Virus genome (UHGV): UHGV-0096747
DNA from: a virus
Reading direction: 5' to 3' (one strand)
DNA length: 32,457 bases
Below, one piece after another: positions 6,876 to 28,870 of the stretch. How positions within the stretch are numbered: the stretch's first letter is position 1; each line of letters opens with the position of its first letter. Under the pieces are notes generated by a model. The model was not told the DNA's origin, did no database searches, and saw nothing but the letters and a program-made list of their open reading frames with translations. The position numbers were made by a program, and so were the translations under genes.

Positions 6876-7052
6876 CCGTTTAACTCCGTGGTTAATGGGT
6901 GCAACTATTTTCTGTTGGGCAGTGCATGAGACGCTATTTGACCTGGCTGGTCAGTGGATGAAACAACAGATAAAGAAAAGGCGGGCAATCAGCTTGCCTG
7001 CCTTGATTTGTACTCTCTCTGTTTCCAACTGACAAATTACGTAACCAAAATT

Positions 7053-7068
7053 CTGTCAAATCTGACAG
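7053..7068. terminator. Possible weak bidirectional terminator hairpin between the cargo gene and FI
   Basis: CTGTCA-AATC-TGACAG perfect 6-bp dyad flanked by 4-T runs on both strands, 68 nt downstream of the 7136..7828 ORF. Confidence 0.3.
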
Positions 7069-7135
7069 CCTGTTTTGAGCGAAGAGCGGACCTGAGATTG
7101 TGGTATGCTAATTTATGGGGAGCAGGTCAATTGTA

Positions 7136-7828
7136 TTAGTTATCTTTTTGCTTTTCTTTATCCCATTTCTTTGCAGTGGTCTGATACCACTCTTCACGTG
7201 CTCGTTGTTCCTCGGCTCTGTCACTTGAATTATAGTTGTCTGTTTTAATTTTTTTGCTTCCCTGGGAAATCGGCCTCCAGTCTTCTCTAATCTTTTTCAT
7301 CTGCTCAGCTATCTGTGTCATTGGACTCCTTGCACCTAAGTAGCTAACCCCCTCGAAAGAAGCCATATCATAAGAATACTCATTCCGCTCTCTTTCAGTT
7401 GAGCCCGGCTGTTTAGACCAGCTAATACTAACAGAATAAACTTGATCTTTAATCTGGTCATACTTACAAAGACTGCTGTTAAGGGAATGGCCGTTTTTCA
7501 ATACGCTAACCTTGCTAAATGGTATACCTTCATTTTTTCTATGTTCTGCATTAACCAGTGGGGGATTAAATCCGACTTCAATATCATAGGCTGGGGCATT
7601 TCCGGTATTAGCAATATTGATATCAAAATAAAAAGCAGCCCAAGAATTTGGTTCAAGAGTCACAACGACATGAGGTTGAACTGATGCGTCAACCATCCTT
7701 TTTGTCTCGTCTGCTAATAGCCTTGTTACTCTCCACAAGAAAAATGTAGCAACTGCTGTTAGCAATGCTGCCAAAGCGGAGATAAGTGTACTTACTGTGT
7801 TTATATGCTCTGCGATAAATTCGATCAT
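7136..7828 (-). CDS. Hypothetical single-pass membrane protein, AT-rich cargo at the Z/fun position
   Basis: 230-aa ORF with ATG start and AAGGA Shine-Dalgarno 7 nt upstream; N-terminal hydrophobic helix (VSTLISALAALLTAVATFFLW) then a charged soluble domain; AT-rich unlike the flanking tail genes. Confidence 0.6.
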   Translation of the reverse strand: MIEFIAEHINTVSTLISALAALLTAVATFFLWRVTRLLADETKRMVDASVQPHVVVTLEPNSWAAFYFDINIANTGNAPAYDIEVGFNPPLVNAEHRKNEGIPFSKVSVLKNGHSLNSSLCKYDQIKDQVYSVSISWSKQPGSTERERNEYSYDMASFEGVSYLGARSPMTQIAEQMKKIREDWRPISQGSKKIKTDNYNSSDRAEEQRAREEWYQTTAKKWDKEKQKDN

Positions 7829-8319
7829 GAGTTGTCCTTGGGGGCGTACTAATTGTTTTCAATACTAAAATAGCGCCGGGCTTGAAAAATTGCACACTTA
7901 TGGTTCGATTTACCTCAACAGTTAAGGCTTCAACTTCCCCCATGCACCTCACCCAGCCCAAGACTGTATGAGGTCTGACAAAGAACTTCCTGACACTTGA
8001 AAACGAGGCAACGGCTAGGGTTTCTCGTAGGGCAAGGATTGAATACGAAGCCTGTATATTGCTCCGCGAACGCTGCTGAGGGCAGTTTAAATGTTGGGCG
8101 TTTATGTAGCCTTTCACTCACCAGCATGAGTTCAATGTCTGTGAGTTACCGACAACAATATAAAGGGGGTGGCATCATCATATATCCAAGCTAGAGTCAA
8201 ATCCTATAACTGGTTTTATGATCAGTGTCAATTGTTTGATTATTGAACGTTTACGAAGCAGCACGGGAGCCATATAACTAATGGGCAGGTATAAGCCTGT
8301 ATCACGAGGAATCAGTAAA

Positions 8320-8499
8320 ATGGCTGATGATAAGACCAAAATCGGTACCCCTGACAATGATTTAATAAGTATCAAACAGGATTACGAGAGACGTGATTGG
8401 GCTGAAAAGTTTGGAGTTAGCGAGGCCAAACTTGTTCAAGCCGTACAGGCTGTAGGTCATTCGGCTAAGAAAGTACAGGCATGGCTTAAAGACCATTAA
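8320..8499 (+). CDS. Small hypothetical protein (59 aa), resembles the DUF3606 family
   Basis: Internal ATG at 8320 with GAGGAA Shine-Dalgarno 8 nt upstream (the track ORF starts earlier at 8281); WAEKFGVSEAKLVQAVQAVGHSAKKV matches my memory of the DUF3606 pattern; followed by a terminator. Confidence 0.5.
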   Translation: MADDKTKIGTPDNDLISIKQDYERRDWAEKFGVSEAKLVQAVQAVGHSAKKVQAWLKDH

Positions 8500-8505
8500 T
8501 ATATG

Positions 8506-8528
8506 AGCGCCTTTCTAGGCGCTTTTTT
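8506..8528 (+). terminator. Rho-independent terminator between the two small cargo ORFs
   Basis: AGCGCC-TTTCTA-GGCGCT hairpin followed by TTTTTT. Confidence 0.5.
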
Positions 8529-8551
8529 CTTTGTCCTTTGGGAGATGATTT

Positions 8552-8830
8552 ATGGCTAATAATTTATTTATTACTTACGACCTCATTAAAACGAAAGATT
8601 ATGCGGCTGTGTATGATGCAATTAAATCTTTAGGAAATTGGGCTTTAACAACTGAATCGAACTGGTATGTTAACTGTAGTTACTCTGCCGAGGATGCAGC
8701 CAAAATTGTGAGGGCGGTCATGGATAGTGATGATAAGCTTATTGTTGTAGACGCAACCAATAACTCAGCTTATTGGTACAATCTCTCAGATGAAGTTAGT
8801 AACCAAATTCTGACTGAGTGGAACAAGTAA
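8552..8830 (+). CDS. Small hypothetical protein (92 aa)
   Basis: ATG with GGGAG Shine-Dalgarno upstream; AT-rich; alternating hydrophobic strand-like and helix-like segments (LFITYDL, KLIVVDA, AYWYNL); no family assigned. Confidence 0.5.
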   Translation: MANNLFITYDLIKTKDYAAVYDAIKSLGNWALTTESNWYVNCSYSAEDAAKIVRAVMDSDDKLIVVDATNNSAYWYNLSDEVSNQILTEWNK

Positions 8831-8856
8831 TTAAAGGGGGTGGGTACCCCCTTTAA
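8831..8856. terminator. Perfect 10-bp inverted repeat (TTAAAGGGGG / CCCCCTTTAA), likely bidirectional terminator closing the cargo island
   Basis: Palindrome with 6-nt loop immediately after the stop of the 92-aa ORF. Confidence 0.4.
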
Positions 8857-9049
8857 TTCAGAAACTATCATGATTGAAACATTAAATATACTGGGTTAAT
8901 TCTTTCATCCTTGCTCCCTTGCTATATGTCCTGAAAGCGTCCTTTTTAGCCTTCTGCTCAGTATGTCCGGTAATGGCACAGAGCGGACTGTCAGATTAGG
9001 CTTTACTCTGTGCCATAGATATGTAATCTCACACCAGAGCTTATACAAC

Positions 9050-9577
9050 TTATTGCGGCATTTCCGGCCATTCAGGATTTGCAGGATCCACACGACTGAC
9101 CAGAACGCTGTAGCGTTCCCAGATCTCCAGCCGTGTGCGCTCCTCATCTGTTGCCATGTTCAGTCTGACCGCGCGCTCCAGCGGCAAAATCACGGATTCA
9201 GCATCTGCTAGAAGTCTGGCTTTCCGATTTTCTGCCTGCTGCTGCAATTCCTCCGCCGTATAAATTCGTTTAATCACTGTGCCGTCCTTAAACATCCAGT
9301 TCCCTGAAATGTCCGCCCGTCGGTTAGCGGTAATATCCGGCACTTCAACAACACTTAATCCATCTGGTCTGATAGCTGTCACATCCTTTTCCACATAGCG
9401 GATAATATTATCTTTGTCGTACGCTATTTTTATCGTGTCATCAGCAAAATACTTTTGTTCTTCGTACCAGTTCTTACCATCTTCTGAAAAAAACCAGACA
9501 ACATCAAAACCCTTTGTCAATTGATATTGTTCAACCGTTTTTGGATTACCCGCCGTAATATTTTTTAAATGCTGCAT
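9050..9577 (-). CDS. G: Tail fibre assembly protein
   Basis: 175 aa as in P2 gpG; immediately downstream of the tail fibre gene. Confidence 0.88.
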
Positions 9578-13372: not shown

Positions 13373-14004
13373 AAAGGACTCCCGGTTGTGCCGCCGCTGT
13401 CGCCGGGGTGTTTATGGGTATGCAGTACCTTACCGTTTGATGAGAGTTCACCGCCGGTGTGTTCAATGTTGCCGCGCATCGTCCCGCCCTTCTGCACTTC
13501 CAGCATGCCGGTAGTCAGTTTGTTGGTGCAGACCACTTCCGGTGTGTCCAGGGTGATGCGGGTTGATGCTTTCACCATAACCACCGGCACCGTGGCAGTA
13601 ACAGAATCAGAAGCCATCACGCTGGCCGTTTTAACTCCGCTTACCGTGAGCGCACTGGTTTCAGGTTCATACTCAATCACCGCCCCGTCAGGGAAACGGA
13701 TATGCAGGGCATCCGCCGACGCAGACGGCGCGGGGTTATCGCCGGAATAAATCCCCGGCAGAACGAACGCCGTGTCGAGTTCACCGCCCACGGCCAGAAT
13801 CAGCACCTGTTCCCCCACGGAAGGTGCCCACCATGTGCGCGAACGTCCGGCGCGATGGGTCAGCCACTGAAGCCAGTCGGTGCACATGCCGCCGGTCTGC
13901 ACACGGCAGCGACCGGCGTTAAGGTCGGTTTCGACGATAATGCCGGTGCGAATCATGTTGCGCAGTGCGCGCGCGAGTTCCTGAATATTTGCGAGAGTGT
14001 TCAT
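13369..14004 (-). CDS. V: Baseplate spike protein V
   Basis: 211 aa from the ATG at 14002..14004 (MNTLANIQ), matching P2 gpV length; the track ORF extends 6 codons further upstream. Confidence 0.85.
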   Translation of the reverse strand: MNTLANIQELARALRNMIRTGIIVETDLNAGRCRVQTGGMCTDWLQWLTHRAGRSRTWWAPSVGEQVLILAVGGELDTAFVLPGIYSGDNPAPSASADALHIRFPDGAVIEYEPETSALTVSGVKTASVMASDSVTATVPVVMVKASTRITLDTPEVVCTNKLTTGMLEVQKGGTMRGNIEHTGGELSSNGKVLHTHKHPGDSGGTTGSPL

Positions 14005-14087
14005 GCATGTGAGATTGCACAATATATAAAAGTTATGCTATCTGGATTCATTTGTAGAACTACCAGACAACATTCAAGGAGAGCGTA

Positions 14088-14873
14088 ATGGTCAGCTATA
14101 ATGTGACTAATGTGTGGGGGCTAATCGTTTTTTTCCTTTGTAGCTTTGCAGTATTAGCATTTTTTAGCTTTGGTAAAAGTAACCTTATGAGGCTTATTGC
14201 ACATTATTTCAATTTTGGATATTCAGACAAAAAATTAAAAAGACTTGACCGCGAGTGGCGCGACATTCAACTATTTAAAATAATTAACGGAATCAATGTA
14301 TCAGGCATTGAAAATGTGAGAATGATACAGCAGGGACTGATTGATGGAAAACTAAAAACATCGTATTTTTTCCTTACTCGCATCTGGGGTGACATAACAA
14401 AAACACCACACATAATTAAAACAATAATTGTAATTCTGTCCAGTATTTTTTACATTCTCCTCGCATGTTACATACACAACGAACAATCCGTTATAGTAAG
14501 GGATGCCATAGGCATACCATATAAAAACATGATGTACTATGTTTATAGTGACAAAGTTCTTTTATCCTTCAAAAATAAAGCAGTTGAATTTAATAAAACT
14601 TATAGCCTTGCCGATTGCAAGAGACTGCAAAACGTATTTATAAAAGACACACTTCCTGAAATCGCCTGCAATAAGCTCTTACAGCTAAACGAGGAGGACT
14701 CCGAATGGTTAAGCCAGGAGATTAAAGATAATAACAGTCACAAAAAAGCATTATCAATACTATCCCTCGTCTATTTCACTTCAGGTCTGGTTATATTCCT
14801 GTCATATACAAAATTCTTTTACGCCAATAAGAAGGTTTTAGAATACAAAGCATCAAATAAAAATCACTCATAA
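14088..14873 (+). CDS. orf30-like AT-rich membrane protein, antisense to the late operon
   Basis: 261 aa (786 bp, the size I recall for P2 orf30); ATG with AGGAG Shine-Dalgarno; three hydrophobic helix-like segments; very AT-rich; opposite strand to flanking V and S. Confidence 0.7.
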   Translation: MVSYNVTNVWGLIVFFLCSFAVLAFFSFGKSNLMRLIAHYFNFGYSDKKLKRLDREWRDIQLFKIINGINVSGIENVRMIQQGLIDGKLKTSYFFLTRIWGDITKTPHIIKTIIVILSSIFYILLACYIHNEQSVIVRDAIGIPYKNMMYYVYSDKVLLSFKNKAVEFNKTYSLADCKRLQNVFIKDTLPEIACNKLLQLNEEDSEWLSQEIKDNNSHKKALSILSLVYFTSGLVIFLSYTKFFYANKKVLEYKASNKNHS

Positions 14874-14878
14874 ACCTC

Positions 14879-14915
14879 TAAACATTGAGCGACCAGCATG
14901 GCCGCTCAATGTTTA
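14879..14915. terminator. Bidirectional terminator between convergent orf30-like gene and S
   Basis: 13-bp perfect inverted repeat (TAAACATTGAGCG / CGCTCAATGTTTA) with 11-nt loop, T-rich flank. Confidence 0.5.
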
Positions 14916-21318: not shown

Positions 21319-23091
21319 ATGACCATCACCACAGACACCACTCTTTTGCACGACCCGCGTCGTCAGGCGGCGCTGCTGTACTGGCAGGGGTTTTCCGTGC
21401 CGCAGATTGCCGCCATGTTGCAGATGAAACGCCCGACGGTGCAGAGCTGGAAACAGCGCGACGGCTGGGACAGCGTTGCCCCCATCAGCCGTGTCGAAAT
21501 GAGTCTGGAAGCGCGGCTGACCCAGCTCATTATCAAACCGCAGAAAACCGGCGGTGACTTCAAGGAAATTGACCTGCTCGGACGCCAGATTGAACGACTG
21601 GCACGGGTAAACCGCTACAGCCAGACCGGCAACGAGGCAGACCTTAATCCGAACGTCGCTAACCGCAACAAAGGCGGGCGTCGCAAACCGAAAAAGAATT
21701 TTTTCAGTGACGAGGCCATCGAAAAGCTGGAGCAGATTTTCTTTGAGCAGTCTTTCGAATATCAGTTGCACTGGTATCGCGCCGGGCTTGAGCACCGCAT
21801 CCGCGATATCCTGAAATCCCGTCAGATTGGCGCGACGTTTTATTTTTCCCGTGAGGCGCTGCTGCGCGCCCTGAAAACCGGCCATAACCAGATTTTTCTG
21901 TCGGCCAGTAAAACGCAGGCGTATGTGTTCCGCGAATACATCATCGCCTTTGCCCGGCTGGTTGACGTTGACCTGACTGGTGACCCGATTGTCCTGGGCA
22001 ATAACGGCGCAAAACTGATTTTTCTCGGCACCAACTCCAACACCGCACAGAGCCATAACGGCGACCTGTACGTCGACGAGATTTTCTGGATCCCGAATTT
22101 TCAGGTACTGCGTAAGGTGGCATCAGGTATGGCCTCACAGAGTCACCTGCGCTCGACCTATTTCTCCACCCCGTCCACGCTGGCGCACGACGCCTACCCG
22201 TTCTGGTCCGGTGAACTGTTCAACCGGGGACGCGCCAGCGCCGCTGAACGCGTGGAAATCGACGTCAGTCATAACGCCCTTGCCGGTGGGCTTCTCTGTG
22301 CGGACGGACAGTGGCGGCAGATTGTCACCATTGAGGACGCCCTGAAAGGTGGCTGCACACTGTTCGACATTGAGCAGCTCAAACGTGAAAACAGCGCCGA
22401 CGATTTTAAAAACCTGTTCATGTGTGAATTTGTTGACGACAAGGCGTCGGTGTTCCCGTTCGAGGAACTGCAACGCTGCATGGTCGACACGCTGGAAGAA
22501 TGGGAAGACTATGCCCCCTTTGCCGCAAATCCGTTCGGCTCCCGCCCGGTATGGATTGGTTACGACCCGTCACACCGTGGCGACAGCGCCGGATGCGTGG
22601 TGCTGGCACCGCCGGTGGTGGCCGGTGGCAAATTCAGAATACTTGAGCGTCACCAGTGGAAAGGCATGGACTTTGCCACTCAGGCGGAATCCATCCGCAA
22701 ACTCACCGAAAAATACAACGTCGAATACATCGGTATCGATGCCACCGGCCTCGGTGTCGGCGTGTTCCAGCTCGTGCGCTCGTTCTATCCCGCCGCGCGC
22801 GATATCCGCTACACGCCGGAAATGAAAACCGCAATGGTACTCAAGGCAAAAGACGTTATCCGCCGTGGCTGTCTGGAATACGACGTCAGCGCCACCGACA
22901 TCACCAGCTCGTTTATGGCTATCCGCAAGACCATGACCAGCAGCGGACGCAGCGCCACCTATGAGGCCAGCCGCAGCGAGGAAGCCAGCCACGCCGACCT
23001 CGCCTGGGCGACCATGCACGCTCTGTTAAATGAGCCACTCACCGCCGGTATCAGCACCCCGCTGACATCCACCATTCTGGAGTTTTACTGA
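21319..23091 (+). CDS. P: Terminase large subunit (ATPase)
   Basis: 590 aa from the ATG at 21319 with GAGG Shine-Dalgarno, matching P2 gpP; the track ORF begins at an upstream TTG. Confidence 0.9.
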   Translation: MTITTDTTLLHDPRRQAALLYWQGFSVPQIAAMLQMKRPTVQSWKQRDGWDSVAPISRVEMSLEARLTQLIIKPQKTGGDFKEIDLLGRQIERLARVNRYSQTGNEADLNPNVANRNKGGRRKPKKNFFSDEAIEKLEQIFFEQSFEYQLHWYRAGLEHRIRDILKSRQIGATFYFSREALLRALKTGHNQIFLSASKTQAYVFREYIIAFARLVDVDLTGDPIVLGNNGAKLIFLGTNSNTAQSHNGDLYVDEIFWIPNFQVLRKVASGMASQSHLRSTYFSTPSTLAHDAYPFWSGELFNRGRASAAERVEIDVSHNALAGGLLCADGQWRQIVTIEDALKGGCTLFDIEQLKRENSADDFKNLFMCEFVDDKASVFPFEELQRCMVDTLEEWEDYAPFAANPFGSRPVWIGYDPSHRGDSAGCVVLAPPVVAGGKFRILERHQWKGMDFATQAESIRKLTEKYNVEYIGIDATGLGVGVFQLVRSFYPAARDIRYTPEMKTAMVLKAKDVIRRGCLEYDVSATDITSSFMAIRKTMTSSGRSATYEASRSEEASHADLAWATMHALLNEPLTAGISTPLTSTILEFY

Positions 23092-24125
23092 TGAGCAAGA
23101 AAAAAGGGAAAACACCGCAACCTGCGGCAAATAAAATGACCGCCAACGCCCCGAAAATGGAGGCATTCACCTTTGGTGAGCCGGTGCCGGTACTCGACCG
23201 CCGTGACATTCTGGATTATGTCGAGTGCATCAGTAACGGCAGATGGTATGAGCCACCGGTCAGCTTTACCGGTCTGGCAAAAAGCCTGCGTGCTGCCGTG
23301 CATCACAGCTCACCGATTTACGTCAAACGCAATATTCTGGCCTCGACATTTATCCCGCATCCGTGGCTTTCTCAGCAGGATTTCAGCCGCTTTGTGCTGG
23401 ACTTTCTGGTGTTCGGTAATGCGTTTCTGGAAAAGCGTTACAGCACCACCGGTAAGGTCATCAGACTGGAAACCTCACCGGCAAAATATACCCGCCGTGG
23501 TGTGGAAGAGGATGTTTACTGGTGGGTGCCGTCCTTCAACGAGCCGACACCTTTCACGCCCGGCTCCGTGTTTCACCTGCTGGAGCCGGATATTAATCAG
23601 GAGCTGTACGGCCTGCCGGAATATCTCAGCGCCCTTAACTCTGCCTGGCTGAATGAGTCGGCCACGCTGTTCCGCCGCAAGTATTACGAAAACGGCGCTC
23701 ATGCCGGATACATCATGTACGTCACCGATGCCGTGCAGGATCGCAACGATATAGAAATGCTCCGCGAAAACATGGTTAAGTCGAAAGGCCGCAACAACTT
23801 TAAAAATCTGTTCCTCTATGCCCCACAGGGGAAAGCCGACGGCATTAAAATTATCCCGCTCAGTGAAGTCGCAACGAAGGACGATTTTTTTAATATCAAA
23901 AAAGCCAGCGCCGCTGACCTGCTGGACGCGCACCGCATCCCCTTTCAGTTGATGGGCGGCAAGCCGGAGAACGTCGGATCGCTGGGTGATATTGAGAAAG
24001 TGGCAAAGGTCTTTGTCCGCAATGAGCTTATCCCGCTACAGGACAGGATCCGCGAGATAAACGGCTGGCTCGGTCAGGAGGTCATCCGCTTTAAAAACTA
24101 CTCACTGGACACTGACAACGGCTGA
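23091..24125 (+). CDS. Q: Portal protein
   Basis: 344 aa as in P2 gpQ; start overlaps the P stop. Confidence 0.9.
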   Translation: MSKKKGKTPQPAANKMTANAPKMEAFTFGEPVPVLDRRDILDYVECISNGRWYEPPVSFTGLAKSLRAAVHHSSPIYVKRNILASTFIPHPWLSQQDFSRFVLDFLVFGNAFLEKRYSTTGKVIRLETSPAKYTRRGVEEDVYWWVPSFNEPTPFTPGSVFHLLEPDINQELYGLPEYLSALNSAWLNESATLFRRKYYENGAHAGYIMYVTDAVQDRNDIEMLRENMVKSKGRNNFKNLFLYAPQGKADGIKIIPLSEVATKDDFFNIKKASAADLLDAHRIPFQLMGGKPENVGSLGDIEKVAKVFVRNELIPLQDRIREINGWLGQEVIRFKNYSLDTDNG

Positions 24126-24130
24126 ACATC

Positions 24131-24152
24131 GCCGCCTGCGGGCGGCTTTTTT
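24131..24152 (+). terminator. Rho-independent terminator after Q
   Basis: GCCGCC-TGCG-GGCGGC hairpin followed by TTTTTT, 6 nt after the Q stop. Confidence 0.6.
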
Positions 24153-24217
24153 ACACCCCGCCATCACGACGCGCTCAGACGCTGAAAAAATAAAATCAGC
24201 ACCACCGCCAGCGCGCA

Positions 24218-24236
24218 GTGCTTTCCCCGCCTCGCC
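24218..24236. other. cos: cos site (19-nt cohesive-end sequence)
   Basis: Reverse complement GGCGAGGCGGGGAAAGCAC matches my recollection of the P2 cohesive end; it sits just beyond Q as in P2. Confidence 0.6.
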
Positions 24237-24368
24237 CGCCCGCTTCATGGGGCGGTTTTAATGCAGGTGCATGATATCTGCCGTAGCCAGTCAGGGCAGG
24301 CTGATTTTAGCCAAAATAATTCGTAAAACCTCATGCATTTTCATGCACCAAACTCATGCATGGCTATC

Positions 24369-24698
24369 TTAAAACTTGATGGTATTTAATAAAACGCGAA
24401 AAGCCACACACTTTGTAGAAATAGCAGAAACCTTTGCCTTATCCTGCTTCCTTGCCTGAGACTCAAAATCATCACCTGTTATAATATCAAAAAGTTCGTC
24501 ATGAAAAACCCTTAACTGAGCTTCAATATCCTTTCTTTTCCATCGCGACTCTTGCTGAACATATATTGTTATAGTCGAATTTATTATATTTAAACTCGCC
24601 TTAATTCTCATTTCCTCTTCTAAGAGAGACTTCGCCGACTTTTTTGAATACCCCTTCAACCAATAACTAATAGCATCAGAACGCAACTCATTAACCAC
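24369..24698 (-). CDS. Hypothetical protein, fourth ORF of the old/tin-position cargo operon
   Basis: 109-aa ORF with GTG start and GGAGAG Shine-Dalgarno 10-11 nt upstream; AT-rich; overlaps the preceding ORF by 43 nt in another frame. Confidence 0.4.
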   Translation of the reverse strand: MVNELRSDAISYWLKGYSKKSAKSLLEEEMRIKASLNIINSTITIYVQQESRWKRKDIEAQLRVFHDELFDIITGDDFESQARKQDKAKVSAISTKCVAFRVLLNTIKF

Positions 24699-25030
24699 AT
24701 CTGAAATACTCTCCAGGAGTTTGGTTTTAGTCTCCCGTTTAACAACAGAACGCCAATGGACTTTATTATATGCAAATGCGGCAGTGGCCGCAAAATAGTA
24801 CTAATAAGAGCCGTAATAAGTGATGACGATAAAATAGGCGTTTCAGGTGGATGCCGTATTGCATCAACAATATTAGAACTAGCTACTTCAATTATCGTAT
24901 TAATATCCTTAACTGCATGAGTAGCACTCAGGCCTTCTTCATTATCCTTCTTGATAAAAAGCAAACTAGGTGAGAACTCACCAGAACCCTCACCTAAAAT
25001 AAACATCGGATTATTCGACTGTTGGCTCAT
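24656..25030 (-). CDS. Hypothetical protein, third ORF of the cargo operon (C-terminal half may be out of frame)
   Basis: 124-aa ORF with ATG start overlapping the end of the upstream ORF by 20 nt; AT-rich. Confidence 0.4.
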   Translation of the reverse strand: MSQQSNNPMFILGEGSGEFSPSLLFIKKDNEEGLSATHAVKDINTIIEVASSNIVDAIRHPPETPILSSSLITALISTILRPLPHLHIIKSIGVLLLNGRLKPNSWRVFQMWLMSCVLMLLVIG

Positions 25031-25400
25031 ATCGTTTCGAATTAAACTGCGCCTCGTTGATATATTGTTCTATTTTCTTTTTATAGAAATCAAAATCAGG
25101 ATTAGTATATTTAATTTCAATTTTAGACAATAACTCATTGGCATGCATATATCCATATTTTACCATGCCCGCAAAGCCCTCCACCAAAAAAGACGAACCA
25201 TATCCTTCGACATCATCATCGATGACTATCTGCAATTTTTCCCCAGCAGAAAGCAAGCTTAGACGCTTTCTTAAGAAATCTTCTCTAAACCGTTCACCAC
25301 TTGCTGTCCCGTCAGTACGATAGCGGCCTCTGGGAACTTTCGAGAACTCTGAACCAATCTTCAATGTTTTCATGAGGCTAGCAACCAATCTAGTAATCAT
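25011..25400 (-). CDS. Small protein (129 aa), possible STAS-like fold, translationally coupled to the upstream ATPase gene
   Basis: The ATG at 25398..25400 overlaps the upstream TGA (ATGA coupling) and has a GGAG Shine-Dalgarno; the track ORF starts earlier at a TTG. Segment IVIDDDVEGYGSSFLVEGF loosely resembles the STAS core. Confidence 0.5.
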   Translation of the reverse strand: MITRLVASLMKTLKIGSEFSKVPRGRYRTDGTASGERFREDFLRKRLSLLSAGEKLQIVIDDDVEGYGSSFLVEGFAGMVKYGYMHANELLSKIEIKYTNPDFDFYKKKIEQYINEAQFNSKRYEPTVE

Positions 25401-26527
25401 AGCTTTGTACTCCATACTATAAGTGTACCACAAACAGGCAGAGCGAAGCTTACTGATTTTACCTCAGATTTTTTATCATGTTGTGAGTATTTGTAAAGGC
25501 CTTTACCACTCATAATTGAAAGATAACCTTCACCACGTTGCTTTATGAACTCCAACAAGTCCTGCAAGCCTTTACCCCGATCCTCTTCCCCCGTACTAGA
25601 ACGTTTGATTTCAACTGCAGCCTTTAACAATTGTTCATCTCTTTTTCGTTCTGCAAGCGGTAACTTCGAAAGGTAATTTAAAACCTTTTCATGGAGTTTA
25701 GATTCCGGCAAAGACCCAGGAATTGTAATACCTTGATCATAAAACACTACTTTTATTATTCTACTTGAACTATCATATGAAGCAGTTAAATACCATTTTT
25801 TATCATGCTCATGATAACCTTTATTATCTGGATAAGCATGATGAACAACATTTGTAATAGCTTCGGACAAACCACTATATAGGAAAGTCCATTTACCAAG
25901 GTCTTCTCCCACAATACGCTTTATTTCTTTTTTTAAATGCTGAGTTTTTTCATCATCATGTAAATGTCCTTTCATATACTTAACAAAACGGATATTACTT
26001 GGTTCCTTTTCTTTTTCAAGCTCAAAACTATCTTTATTTCTAAATAAGTCAAAAAAACCCAACTCATCAAATTGAGAGAGTATGTTTTTATTCCACGTTT
26101 TCACTTTTGGGCGAATGCGTTGCCTTACCGAATCATCCCATTTTGATAATTCCGCGGTCAATACCAATGCGGCAGATGCAGAAATATATTCAATCTTCGA
26201 AAAGTCAACAAAACAAAGACGGTAACATTGGTTATTAAATATCTTCCGCCCCGTAAGATGCCTAATCGTTTGTATGGCTTGCATTGTACGATGGTAATTA
26301 CTTGAAAAGTTCATCTTTTTAGGTAAAGTAAGGAAAAGGTCTCTATTTTTCCTTATTTCGCAATTTAATCCATCTTTAATTTGCGCATTTATCCAACGAT
26401 TTATTTTTGATGCTTTTGAAATAGGATTAATCTTAGAGCGCCCTGCAGATACAACATCTCTTCCTGTACGATGTAAATAGGATCGTAAAATATCTCTCTC
26501 TCTTTCTCTCTTGGTTATTTTTTTCAT
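25397..26527 (-). CDS. GHKL-family ATPase or kinase-like protein with N-terminal STAS-like segment, first gene of the cargo operon
   Basis: 376 aa; ATG with strong AAGGGGGG Shine-Dalgarno; C-terminal motifs EAITNVVHHA (N-box-like), FYDQGITIPG (G1-like) and DRGKGLQDL (G2-like); N-terminal VDFSKIEYISASAALVL resembles the STAS phospho-site region; AT-rich. Confidence 0.55.
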   Translation of the reverse strand: MKKITKRERERDILRSYLHRTGRDVVSAGRSKINPISKASKINRWINAQIKDGLNCEIRKNRDLFLTLPKKMNFSSNYHRTMQAIQTIRHLTGRKIFNNQCYRLCFVDFSKIEYISASAALVLTAELSKWDDSVRQRIRPKVKTWNKNILSQFDELGFFDLFRNKDSFELEKEKEPSNIRFVKYMKGHLHDDEKTQHLKKEIKRIVGEDLGKWTFLYSGLSEAITNVVHHAYPDNKGYHEHDKKWYLTASYDSSSRIIKVVFYDQGITIPGSLPESKLHEKVLNYLSKLPLAERKRDEQLLKAAVEIKRSSTGEEDRGKGLQDLLEFIKQRGEGYLSIMSGKGLYKYSQHDKKSEVKSVSFALPVCGTLIVWSTKL

Positions 26528-26752
26528 CTTCCCCCCTTAGAAAACTGACGCATTTAACAGCTTTTTTATCATTTTTTCAATCAGTTGTATCAATTTTTGA
26601 TGTGCGCATCAAACTTCTCAAACCCACACAAACACAAACTATCTCGCCCATCCCCTCTAGCCAACCTCAAAACTGTACATAATATGCTCTTTTTCCCGCA
26701 AGGTTATGCGCGAGCCACTCATTCAGCATTAACTTATCATTACAAAACATAA

Positions 26753-28870
26753 TCAGATTGGGCGTTGGCTAGCCCTTCCTTTGAATACCATCAATTCCCG
26801 TGAGTAATCTTTTAATCTCTTCCTAAGAACTGTCATCACCTCAGCATCATTCCAACTAACCACCCCTATATCAATCAAATCCAACACTGCTGCAGCGTGC
26901 TCAGAAGGTGTGGGAGCCGGTAACGAAGTATCACCACCAGTGAGCTTTCCACAGTTATTGACAGGACTCCGAGGCGCGGCGATGCCGCTTTTTAAAGTCA
27001 AAGGCTCAACGACCGGAACTTTCGGCACAATGCGCCAGTCCGTCGTTCTGGTGATATGAATATGACGCGCGCCGAGATGCGGCGCGTAAATGCCGACCAC
27101 TCTCTCGACTTCTTCCTCGTACTCGTTAACGTCATCCGACGGGCTACGGGCGACTCTGACAGTCTGGCAATCACGCGGAACATTTGCCCCACCCTGCGCG
27201 CTGATATACAACGCAAAATCACCACTGTCTGCGGCGGCACGTGCAGCCTCAACGCGTTCGTCAAACTCATCAGCAATGCTGACGCCGCGAGGCAATTTGC
27301 GTAGTTCACGGTAAGCCCCCATTGTCGGCAGGCCAACCGTTTTAAATTGCGGGATGCGCCACGTTGACGCCCATGCGGTAACAGCCGCAGCAGTATCTTT
27401 CAGCGGCCTGCCGGTATCGTTATCGAGCTGACCATCCAGTGCATAGCCATCGATGTTTTTTGAGATGTATTTCGCGATATACCCCGCAGCACCGCCCCGG
27501 TTAAGATGTTTTGCCTGAAAACGGTTTCGCGCGGCTCCTCTTTCGTCGCCATCCTCTTTGAGCGCATAGCGACGCATGATTTCGATAATCTGGTTACGCT
27601 GGCGTGGATTACAAAAAAGCATCATATGCCAGTGCGGCGTTCCGTCGTGGTGTGGCTCGACGACTCGCAAACCGTAGACCTGTAAATCATTATCCTTGAA
27701 TGCCGTGCGCATCAGGCTCCAGATACGACAGAGATAACGCTGCGCATCCTTTGGATTAAATGCCTCATCGTTCCAGCCGTGATTAAGCTGAACGGTTTTA
27801 CTTTCGCCTTTTCTGACCTGACGAGTCGGGTGATACTTTGACGGCGCGGTCAGCGTGATAAACATCCCCACATCACCCTCTGCGGCGGCGTAACGCTCAA
27901 TACCGGCAATGGTGTTCATCAGCTCCATCCGGCGAATTTCAGGATTAGAAATACTGCCCATCACCTTACTGATAAGGTCGATGCGCTCGCCGGTTTCCCT
28001 GTTTTCAAGGTCACACGATTTAAGAAATTCCAGATTTGCCTGGCGGCGCGCACGCACATCACGAATGGCGTGTTTACTGGCATAAGGAGAACGGTCTTTA
28101 TTGACCTCCCCGACAGCTATCAGTAACGCTTCATGCCAGCGCATACGCTGGCCTTTAAGCTGATGAGTCCACCACTCATCGTTAAACAGACGGGCAATGG
28201 CAGAATATGCCTGCCTCGTGGTCATCTGCCCTTTACGGTATTTTTTCCAGTAGAGAGGGGAAATATTGAAAGCACGTGCAGCGCCAGCAACATGACCATA
28301 GAGGTGAGCCTGCGCCTCATCCGTAAACAGCGATTCTTTTTCGCCATGCGCATCCACCCAGGCATCGCTGAGTTCCTCATACATCATGAAAAGCTGCGAT
28401 GAGATACGGGCAGCAAACTTTTTCAGCTCCTTGTCATTCATTCCCGGCAGGCGCGCATAGTGGTCACGCTCTGCCAGAAACAGTAACGACGCGTCGGTGT
28501 TCATTTCATGGCGCTGATTCACACGCTCAATGCGCGGCCATAAACGACGCTGAAAAGTGGATGTGAGGAAATAAAACCCGTGTACCGGGCTTTTATTGCG
28601 CCGGATGTAGTCATAGCGTGAAGTAAACAGCGAGCGCAAAAAGTAAGGCAGGCGGTTAATCGTGGATAAAACACCTTGCACCTGACGCATCTCGTCACGT
28701 GTAAGGGGTCTTTCGCGCCCGACGGCCTCGCGTGGCGCGTTCCATGCATAAGCACCGGTAAACGCCTTACCGGTGCCTGCAGCAAATGCTGAAGGAGGGA
28801 CAAAACGCCCGGAGGCTTTAACGGCCATATGAGCCAAAAGCCTCTGAACAACGCCTGCTGAGTTGCTCAA
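26753..28870 (-). CDS. A: Replication initiation protein A (rolling-circle nickase)
   Basis: About 700 aa in the P2 A position upstream of the old/tin island; HUH-like GTPHWHMML and tyrosine motif YIAKYISK. The track start is a TTG; an in-frame ATG at 28828 is an alternative. Confidence 0.85.
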   Translation of the reverse strand: MSNSAGVVQRLLAHMAVKASGRFVPPSAFAAGTGKAFTGAYAWNAPREAVGRERPLTRDEMRQVQGVLSTINRLPYFLRSLFTSRYDYIRRNKSPVHGFYFLTSTFQRRLWPRIERVNQRHEMNTDASLLFLAERDHYARLPGMNDKELKKFAARISSQLFMMYEELSDAWVDAHGEKESLFTDEAQAHLYGHVAGAARAFNISPLYWKKYRKGQMTTRQAYSAIARLFNDEWWTHQLKGQRMRWHEALLIAVGEVNKDRSPYASKHAIRDVRARRQANLEFLKSCDLENRETGERIDLISKVMGSISNPEIRRMELMNTIAGIERYAAAEGDVGMFITLTAPSKYHPTRQVRKGESKTVQLNHGWNDEAFNPKDAQRYLCRIWSLMRTAFKDNDLQVYGLRVVEPHHDGTPHWHMMLFCNPRQRNQIIEIMRRYALKEDGDERGAARNRFQAKHLNRGGAAGYIAKYISKNIDGYALDGQLDNDTGRPLKDTAAAVTAWASTWRIPQFKTVGLPTMGAYRELRKLPRGVSIADEFDERVEAARAAADSGDFALYISAQGGANVPRDCQTVRVARSPSDDVNEYEEEVERVVGIYAPHLGARHIHITRTTDWRIVPKVPVVEPLTLKSGIAAPRSPVNNCGKLTGGDTSLPAPTPSEHAAAVLDLIDIGVVSWNDAEVMTVLRKRLKDYSRELMVFKGRASQRPI

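Follow-up and report, generated by a model that had tools for sequence, protein, structure and literature searches.

What fills the place of the defence genes old and tin in a P2-like prophage that carries neither of them, and what might the replacement do for its carrier? The question is raised by the UHGV virus genome UHGV-0096747, of which a stretch of 32,457 nucleotides was analysed (the window; coordinates refer to it throughout). Between its portal gene and its replication gene lies a foreign island with a cassette of three genes, here called A, B and C, which encode a kinase, a small STAS-like protein and a membrane protein. By analogy with the CapK and VapK systems introduced below, A-B-C is probably (at roughly 0.55) a kinase-gated abortive-infection or superinfection-exclusion module of that type, in which C would be the effector.

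Three genes, the third one frameshifted

A mechanical list of open reading frames (ORFs) contains four on the minus strand of this region, with lengths of 376 amino acids (25397-26527), 129 (25011-25400; 140 from an upstream TTG, 25011-25433), 124 (24656-25030) and 109 (24369-24698). An earlier reading made from the letters alone (the sequence-only reading) had taken them for a tightly packed operon of four genes with overlapping starts and stops. The ORFs and the overlaps are there as described: the stop of gene A and the start of gene B overlap as ATGA, gene C starts 20 nt inside the end of gene B, and the cassette genes are translationally coupled. The number of genes, however, is three. 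RefSeq calls three in the relatives, namely a 376 amino acid "ATP-binding" or "hypothetical" protein, a 129 amino acid "DUF4325 domain-containing protein" and a hypothetical protein of 220 amino acids (or 212, depending on the choice of start). This single protein of 220 or 212 amino acids is encoded by the same DNA in E. coli PE15, OkiPb01716 and HCM-28C-2. In PE15 (NZ_CP041628.1) the intact cassette and its upstream spacer lie at about 1229600-1232060. In alignments to the relatives L002 and L050 the window lacks one nucleotide at 24792/24793 (minus strand), in codon 80 of gene C and inside the transmembrane helix; it reads GCCGCA-AAATAG where the relatives have GCCGCACAAATAG. Because this deletion shifts the frame at codon 80, the intact gene (24369-25030, minus strand) appears as ORFs of 124 and 109 amino acids, which are the halves of one gene. 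The operon thus consists of three genes, the third of which is frameshifted in the window. We consider it highly improbable that the four ORFs are independent genes of a four-gene operon: the mechanical list does give four, but the last two are collinear halves of one 220 amino acid gene in every intact relative, and the three-gene layout is found in 45 of the 45 loci compared below. The three-gene structure, together with the domain assignments given in the next section, can be held with high confidence.

The frameshift has consequences for this particular copy, which may not work. The deletion may be genuine or may be a sequencing error. If it is real, this prophage lacks its presumed effector. 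In that case the cassette of the window would be an inactivated remnant, with C truncated after residue 79 in the membrane helix and the copy without phenotype, an explanation to which we give slightly less than an even chance. It fits with the deletion being missing from all three of the closest E. coli prophages aligned, and with the exact 124 amino acid product being absent from a collection of about 15 billion public proteins, in which the A and B sequences of the window are found on 568 and 681 contigs, respectively. A single-base indel beside a run of T can, on the other hand, be an error of sequencing or assembly, and outside the indel the cassette agrees with intact copies at 99.9% identity, A and B being common alleles. 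Decay is also seen elsewhere in the family. Gene C is split into two overlapping ORFs in a metagenome-assembled genome of the Pseudomonadales (L012:8514-9153), and in Shewanella decolorationis S12 (L017:7001-9103) both A and C look decayed. The third gene may be lost recurrently; such decay would be expected if this gene is costly.

Domains of the three proteins

Protein A begins with a basic helical region (residues ~1-55), followed by a STAS-like domain (~56-190) and a GHKL serine kinase (~190-376) in which all ATP-binding and catalytic motifs are intact. It is a STAS domain fused to a serine kinase of the SpoIIAB/RsbW type. The STAS domain has two invariant serines, S116 and S118, ahead of a helix at 117-127. 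A profile search of the PDB with protein A under default filters brought no chain to an E-value of 10. A further comparison is with VapKSC, an operon of three genes (Chambers et al., EMBO J 2026, PMC13373217). VapK combines STAS and GHKL domains in one kinase, VapC is a PIN toxin, and VapS is the STAS antitoxin, with binding controlled by its Ser48. The VapK and VapS sequences were taken from the supplementary model file of that paper. Against the VapK kinase domain the profile of protein A reaches an hhalign probability of 80% (E-value 1.4e-5), the alignment covering the GHKL domain alone and leaving the STAS domains unaligned; HMMER gives 15.5 bits (E-value 0.064 at PDB-sized Z). On these scores protein A and VapK appear to belong to a related superfamily and to separate families. 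The same paper describes CapK, a helix-turn-helix (HTH)-STAS-GHKL kinase activated by single-stranded DNA (ssDNA), and CapS, a STAS repressor with a winged HTH domain. ssDNA activation of VapK is predicted only; the aromatic residue in contact with ssDNA is W68 in CapK and F54 in VapK (PMC13373217). By secondary-structure register VapK F54 falls tentatively on Y114 of protein A, a position that varies across the family.

Protein B matches the Pfam family DUF4325 just above the gathering score (23.8 bits with a cutoff of 23, E-value 3.8e-5), and its relatives are named "DUF4325 domain-containing" or "STAS-like domain-containing" in RefSeq. Its GYGSSF motif holds a Ser69-Ser70 dyad; across 37 sequences S70 is invariant and S69 is conserved in at least 90%. 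The dyad is found at the position of the phospho-serine in anti-sigma antagonists and in VapS, and it is followed later in the protein by a conserved C-terminal helix. VapS belongs to the same Pfam family (E-value 2.7e-17 against DUF4325), and its Ser48 aligns on Ser69 of protein B by both alignment methods. Profile searches of the PDB with protein B and with protein C gave nothing significant.

Protein C, in its intact form, has a variable and poorly predicted N-terminus, one hydrophobic helix (~66-88), a basic stretch and then a four-helix bundle that is predicted confidently, with a predicted local distance difference test score (pLDDT) of 87-96. Y123-W124 is invariant and a TGGxFES motif is conserved. 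Since the basic stretch follows the transmembrane helix, the bundle is predicted to face the cytoplasm. There is no match to PIN or any other Pfam family, and fold searches returned generic helical bundles and nothing more. C need not be a toxin. It might be a sensor, or a direct blocker of injection at the inner membrane, with the kinase-STAS pair tuning it or relaying a signal; superinfection would then be excluded while the cell survives, or the module would serve the cycle of the prophage itself through partner-switching signalling, with the rolling-circle ssDNA of P2 as an example of a signal. Such a role would account for C evolving far faster than A (mean column identity of 21% versus 54%) and for the strong variation of its extracytoplasmic N-terminus, a pattern one would look for in a surface in contact with phage components. 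The bundle is also similar to the four-helix type of sensor domain found in histidine kinases and chemoreceptors, and the cassette is co-directional with the early operon, with no terminator-like site found by scanning between replication gene A and the cassette. However, matches to four-helix bundles are unspecific, and bundles designed de novo reach equal scores; short members of the family have almost no extracytoplasmic part; and in the only relatives that have been characterised it is the STAS protein that inhibits the third component. We consider a sensor or blocker an unlikely identity for C.

Scans with Pfam, NCBIfam, PHROGs and PADLOC add little. For the four ORFs, in addition to the DUF4325 match of B, they gave weak GHKL and STAS hints and PHROGs of unknown function, and nothing else. 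The sequence-only reading could match the operon to no named system, and PADLOC-DB v2.0.0 likewise has no match at E<=1 for A, B or either half of C, nor any for intact C; a close architectural relative, VapKSC, is now in the literature all the same. The silence of PADLOC is uninformative here, because it misses VapS altogether and gives for VapK a weak, unrelated DrmA match alone (E-value 3.4e-4). The "3HP" of Rousset 2022 and other named systems of the P2 hotspot were considered and rejected: the paper does not mention a cassette of this sort under STAS, kinase or 3HP-type terms, and PADLOC has no match. A 2026 preprint on P2/P4 hotspots and the iLund4u hotspot preprint do not mention the cassette, and a search of the literature on partner-switching and phage defence found nothing beyond the CapK/VapK paper. 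It is worth noting that, according to a 2026 preprint, a defence gene could not be identified in 19% of P2-like phages.

A cassette that moves as a unit

A word-indexed search gave 342 homologues of protein A, all of them unnamed, and HMMER against 1.84 billion representatives gave 2535 clusters at 50% identity with E<=1e-3, or 467 with E<=1e-30. To see the gene order, 45 loci were taken from a scan of one genome per species, and B and C were sought in them by iterative searches of six-frame ORFs. The loci span Alpha-, Beta- and Gammaproteobacteria, Desulfobacterota, Planctomycetota, Verrucomicrobiota (including Akkermansia), Flavobacteriaceae (Bacteroidota), Nitrospinota and Rickettsiaceae. 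B lies directly downstream of A in 44 of the 45, the remaining locus ending at a contig end, and a protein of the C family follows B in 41. No C could be detected in three loci of the Verrucomicrobiota, but there too the following same-strand gene encodes a protein of 172-201 amino acids that has a hydrophobic helix at its N-terminus. Such constancy of order and strand over 45 loci from many phyla means that the grouping is not due to chance.

Within P2/186-like prophages the cassette is found in the same slot between the replication gene (gpA) and the portal gene in E. coli, Raoultella (90% identity), Pantoea (53%) and Serratia (58%), and it travels as a unit, which the sequence-only reading had raised as a question. 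In a lambdoid Klebsiella prophage (L053:8001-10796) a 54%-identical cassette lies between the replication genes and the antiterminator Q, and is followed by a fragment of 128 amino acids of a P2-type portal protein. The attached fragment suggests transfer from a P2-like phage along with flanking DNA. In the Marinobacter phage AS1 (L057:2884-5262, AS1_42 to AS1_39) a homologous trio lies directly downstream of a HTH repressor-like gene, divergent from cro, in a position like that of rexAB. The gene table of the Francisella phage KIRK lists a 293 amino acid protein, a DUF4325 protein and a 125 amino acid transmembrane protein (Fhv_0046-0048) beside CI (PMC7924643). The cassette is not restricted to phages. 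The 14 kb, non-mobilisable plasmid pB18-6 of Acinetobacter indicus (L058:3149-5065) has a divergent trio of 330 amino acids, 116 amino acids (STAS-like) and 191 amino acids (with a transmembrane helix), adjoining a RelE/ParE toxin and a NadS antitoxin-like gene; in Methylotenera the cassette is in an integrase-bearing island, and in Cycloclasticus it is a lone insertion among housekeeping genes. The A-B-C genes thus move together among temperate phages, plasmids and genomic islands. Among the 150 genes closest to the cassette in these 45 loci are seven integrases, mad3/mad8 of MADS (two loci), JetA (Wadjet), a specificity subunit of a type I restriction-modification system and Cas1, together with reverse transcriptase/DRT, two candidate families from PADLOC, and WYL and AriA-like proteins.

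Some of these settings would also suit a stress-responsive toxin-antitoxin or addiction module, which would have the same wiring of kinase, STAS protein and effector and would stabilise its carrier element or answer DNA damage, with no dedicated role against phages. The 14 kb plasmid with RelE/ParE next to the cassette and the lone insertion among housekeeping genes are what such a module would lead one to expect, and the authors of VapKSC themselves call the boundary between stress response and immunity fuzzy (PMC13373217). We nevertheless judge it improbable, as the cassette recurs in slots where temperate phages keep defence genes of lysogenic conversion (P2 old/tin, and after the repressor-like gene of AS1) and has known defence genes among its neighbours.

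A possible mechanism

How a kinase-gated module of the CapK/VapK type might operate can be sketched with VapKSC as the analogue. As long as the lysogen is at rest, B would be unphosphorylated and would keep C neutralised by binding it. A cue from infection would switch on kinase A, which would phosphorylate B on Ser69/70, and phospho-B would let C go. The freed C would then act at the inner membrane, either by stopping growth or by blocking the incoming phage.

The sequence-only reading had put the operon forward as a strong candidate for a defence or superinfection-exclusion system. The context agrees with this, short of proof: the cassette is mobile, has known defence genes nearby and an architecture like that of VapKSC, and occurs in the P2 old/tin slot in four genera, in the lambdoid prophage, next to the repressor-like gene of AS1 and on a plasmid by a toxin-antitoxin pair. 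Several observations weigh on the other side. The copy at hand is the one with the frameshifted C. Sequence similarity of A and B to VapK and VapS is weak: for A the GHKL domain alone aligns, and for B against VapS the hhalign probability is 13%. In a provisional manual alignment of the STAS domains, protein A has no conserved counterpart of CapK W68 or VapK F54, and the invariant serines of its own STAS domain are missing in VapK, so the regulatory logic may differ from that of VapK. C bears no relation to VapC, no signature of an enzyme or a pore former could be detected in it, and a role as a sensor or scaffold would be just as possible. Many neighbours of the chromosomal loci (including L056) are housekeeping genes, and the case for a promoter belonging to the cassette is a weak one, as described in the next section.

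A broader claim is that A-B-C represents a distinct, so far unnamed and very widespread family of immune modules borne by phages and islands (>2500 clusters at 50% identity, in many phyla), in which a STAS-fused kinase of the anti-sigma type controls a membrane four-helix-bundle effector through a phosphorylatable DUF4325 antitoxin. This we offer tentatively, the balance being a little against it at present. If true, it would extend the CapK/VapK logic from nuclease toxins and transcription to membrane effectors, and would give temperate phages an exclusion device resembling rexAB. Should an intact cassette protect its host against phages, a new effector class, the single-pass membrane protein, would join the kinase/STAS-gated immune modules described in 2026; thousands of members now labelled "hypothetical", "ATP-binding" or "DUF4325" would have a function; and one unannotated cargo of the P2 old/tin hotspot would be accounted for. 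The cassette would also be a compact system for studying the signal that an anti-sigma-type kinase senses during infection, since the work could concentrate on a single kinase, a single serine and a single membrane protein.

The island and its boundaries

The position of the cassette was determined by comparison with P2 (AF063097). On one side it is flanked by portal gene Q (23091-24125), on the other by replication gene A (26753-28870). On the portal side, a 19-mer at 24218-24236 is the cohesive end of cos, its reverse complement matching P2 cosR; it is part of the left backbone beside the island, where window 24265-24218 aligns with P2 33546-33593 at 97.9% identity (blastn). Homology to P2 stops at 24265 and restarts at 26838, inside replication gene A. 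The island between these points (24266-26837) replaces P2 30025-33545, which comprises the 3' end of A, orf91, tin and old. The cassette is therefore in the old/tin slot between cos and replication gene A, just as the sequence-only reading had placed it; its span of 24126-26752 overlaps the foreign DNA, but the island itself starts later and reaches into the 3' end of replication gene A.

Old is a protein of about 586 amino acids that combines an ABC ATPase with a TOPRIM nuclease. No ORF of this size is present in the segment, the longest in the island having 376 amino acids, so that the absence of an Old-like ORF holds as first stated; blastn of the island against P2 30025-33545 finds no similarity either, and an identity with Old or Tin was rejected on both grounds. 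The cassette is co-directional with replication gene A, while old and tin converge on A in P2. The AT-richness first described is real but less pronounced than the 23-30% GC (guanine plus cytosine) given for sampled lines against 57% for the backbone: the island has 36.9% GC compared with 52.2% for the remaining window, and over 300 bp at a time the values are 31-40% inside and about 50-60% elsewhere. Cut into lines of 60 nt, the island has a median of 36.7%, with 30% or less in 8 of 40 lines. The whole segment occurs in 15 of 5426 complete E. coli genomes, at 98.9-99.9% identity, and in no sequenced phage record searched; other P2-like phages align solely to the first ~150 bases of 24126-26752.

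Upstream of the cassette, an AT-rich spacer of 225 bp (26528-26752, minus strand), seen by direct reading of the sequence, separates it from the stop of replication gene A. This spacer contains a GGGGGG ribosome-binding site (26531-26536) ahead of cassette gene A and may be the promoter region of the cassette. The scan for promoters and terminators gave a site density close to that of shuffled sequences and not above it, and upstream of cassette gene A it found only a weak sigma-70-like site (26621-26593) with a 9/12 match.

The right end of the island supplies the last 28 codons of replication gene A (26753-26837, minus strand), giving a chimeric protein with a shortened C-terminus. Homology to P2 ends at window position 26838, equivalent to P2 30024, whereas A of P2 itself runs to 30319; the chimeric protein is about 70 amino acids shorter than P2 gpA (761 amino acids). 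The ori nick site (about 26970) is kept. In relatives, PGAP labels replication gene A as "incomplete, missing C-terminus", and the arrangement is common, the linked cassette kinase A being found on 568 contigs. At the other end, just left of cos (24159-24183), the window lacks 78 bp that are present in 12 of 15 related E. coli prophages (compare L002:3035-3120). The deletion is flanked by short direct repeats, CGCCATCA(C/A)G, and the short form is common to three genomes (H13-H15).

A second unassigned cargo of the prophage lies in the hotspot at the Z/fun position (6876-9050), which has 39-41% GC, with the gene for tail-fibre assembly on one side and that for the sheath on the other. Its ORFs at 7136-7828 (minus strand, 230 amino acids) and 7689-8117 (minus strand, 142 amino acids) have no family matches, and that at 8281-8499 (plus strand, 72 amino acids) is a DUF3606 protein (E-value 4e-18). 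There is also a second AT-rich patch at 13900-14900 (33-37% GC) with an ORF of 261 amino acids (14088-14873, plus strand) among the late genes, for which there is no Pfam or PADLOC match; the patch may be another cargo slot, like P2 orf30.

Comparison with known systems

The closest described system to A-B-C is VapKSC, which gives about 2 logs of protection against phage Bas42 (PMC13373217). Both have the order kinase, STAS protein, third protein, in the cassette on one strand and with overlapping stops and starts. The first gene of both encodes an anti-sigma-type GHKL kinase joined to a STAS domain, with the catalytic motifs intact in A; the second encodes a small STAS protein of the DUF4325 family, in which helix 2 begins with a conserved serine and which also has a C-terminal helix. 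Both are found on mobile elements and near defence genes, the share with defence neighbours being 36% for VapKSC, and no PDB chain scores as well with the profile of A as the VapK kinase domain does. The third protein, however, is a single-pass membrane protein with a four-helix bundle in the cassette and a PIN nuclease in VapKSC, and because it has no VapC the cassette is not a member of VapKSC. Furthermore, A has 376 amino acids compared with 302 in VapK, with an extra basic, helical N-terminal region and the invariant STAS serines, and the marginal similarity speaks for a separate family.

CapK and CapS are likewise a kinase-substrate pair of the same fold classes, and CapK too has an extra helical domain (HTH) before its STAS-GHKL part. 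CapS, unlike B, has a winged-helix domain for binding DNA, and it acts as repressor of the immune operon that follows it, such as CBASS or Bub. Membership was rejected here since B, at 129 amino acids, matches DUF4325 only and has no DNA-binding domain, and what lies downstream of B is gene C alone, followed by cos and the portal gene, and not an immune operon. The pairs SpoIIAB-SpoIIAA, RsbW-RsbV and SiaB-SiaC differ in that the kinase of the cassette is fused to a STAS domain of its own and that the context is phage cargo and not a sporulation or stress regulon. Neither a sigma factor nor a PP2C phosphatase is found in the cassette or its conserved flanks, and a classical partner-switching module was rejected for lack of both.

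With old/tin of P2 the cassette shares the slot in P2-like phages, and with rexAB of lambda the position directly after a repressor-like gene, as seen in phage AS1. RexB is a membrane effector governed by a cytoplasmic partner. Neither pair has a sequence or fold relationship to the cassette, whose direction is also opposite to that of old/tin. Judged by these analogies, the cassette is best described as a new and widespread kinase/STAS-gated variant with a putative membrane effector.

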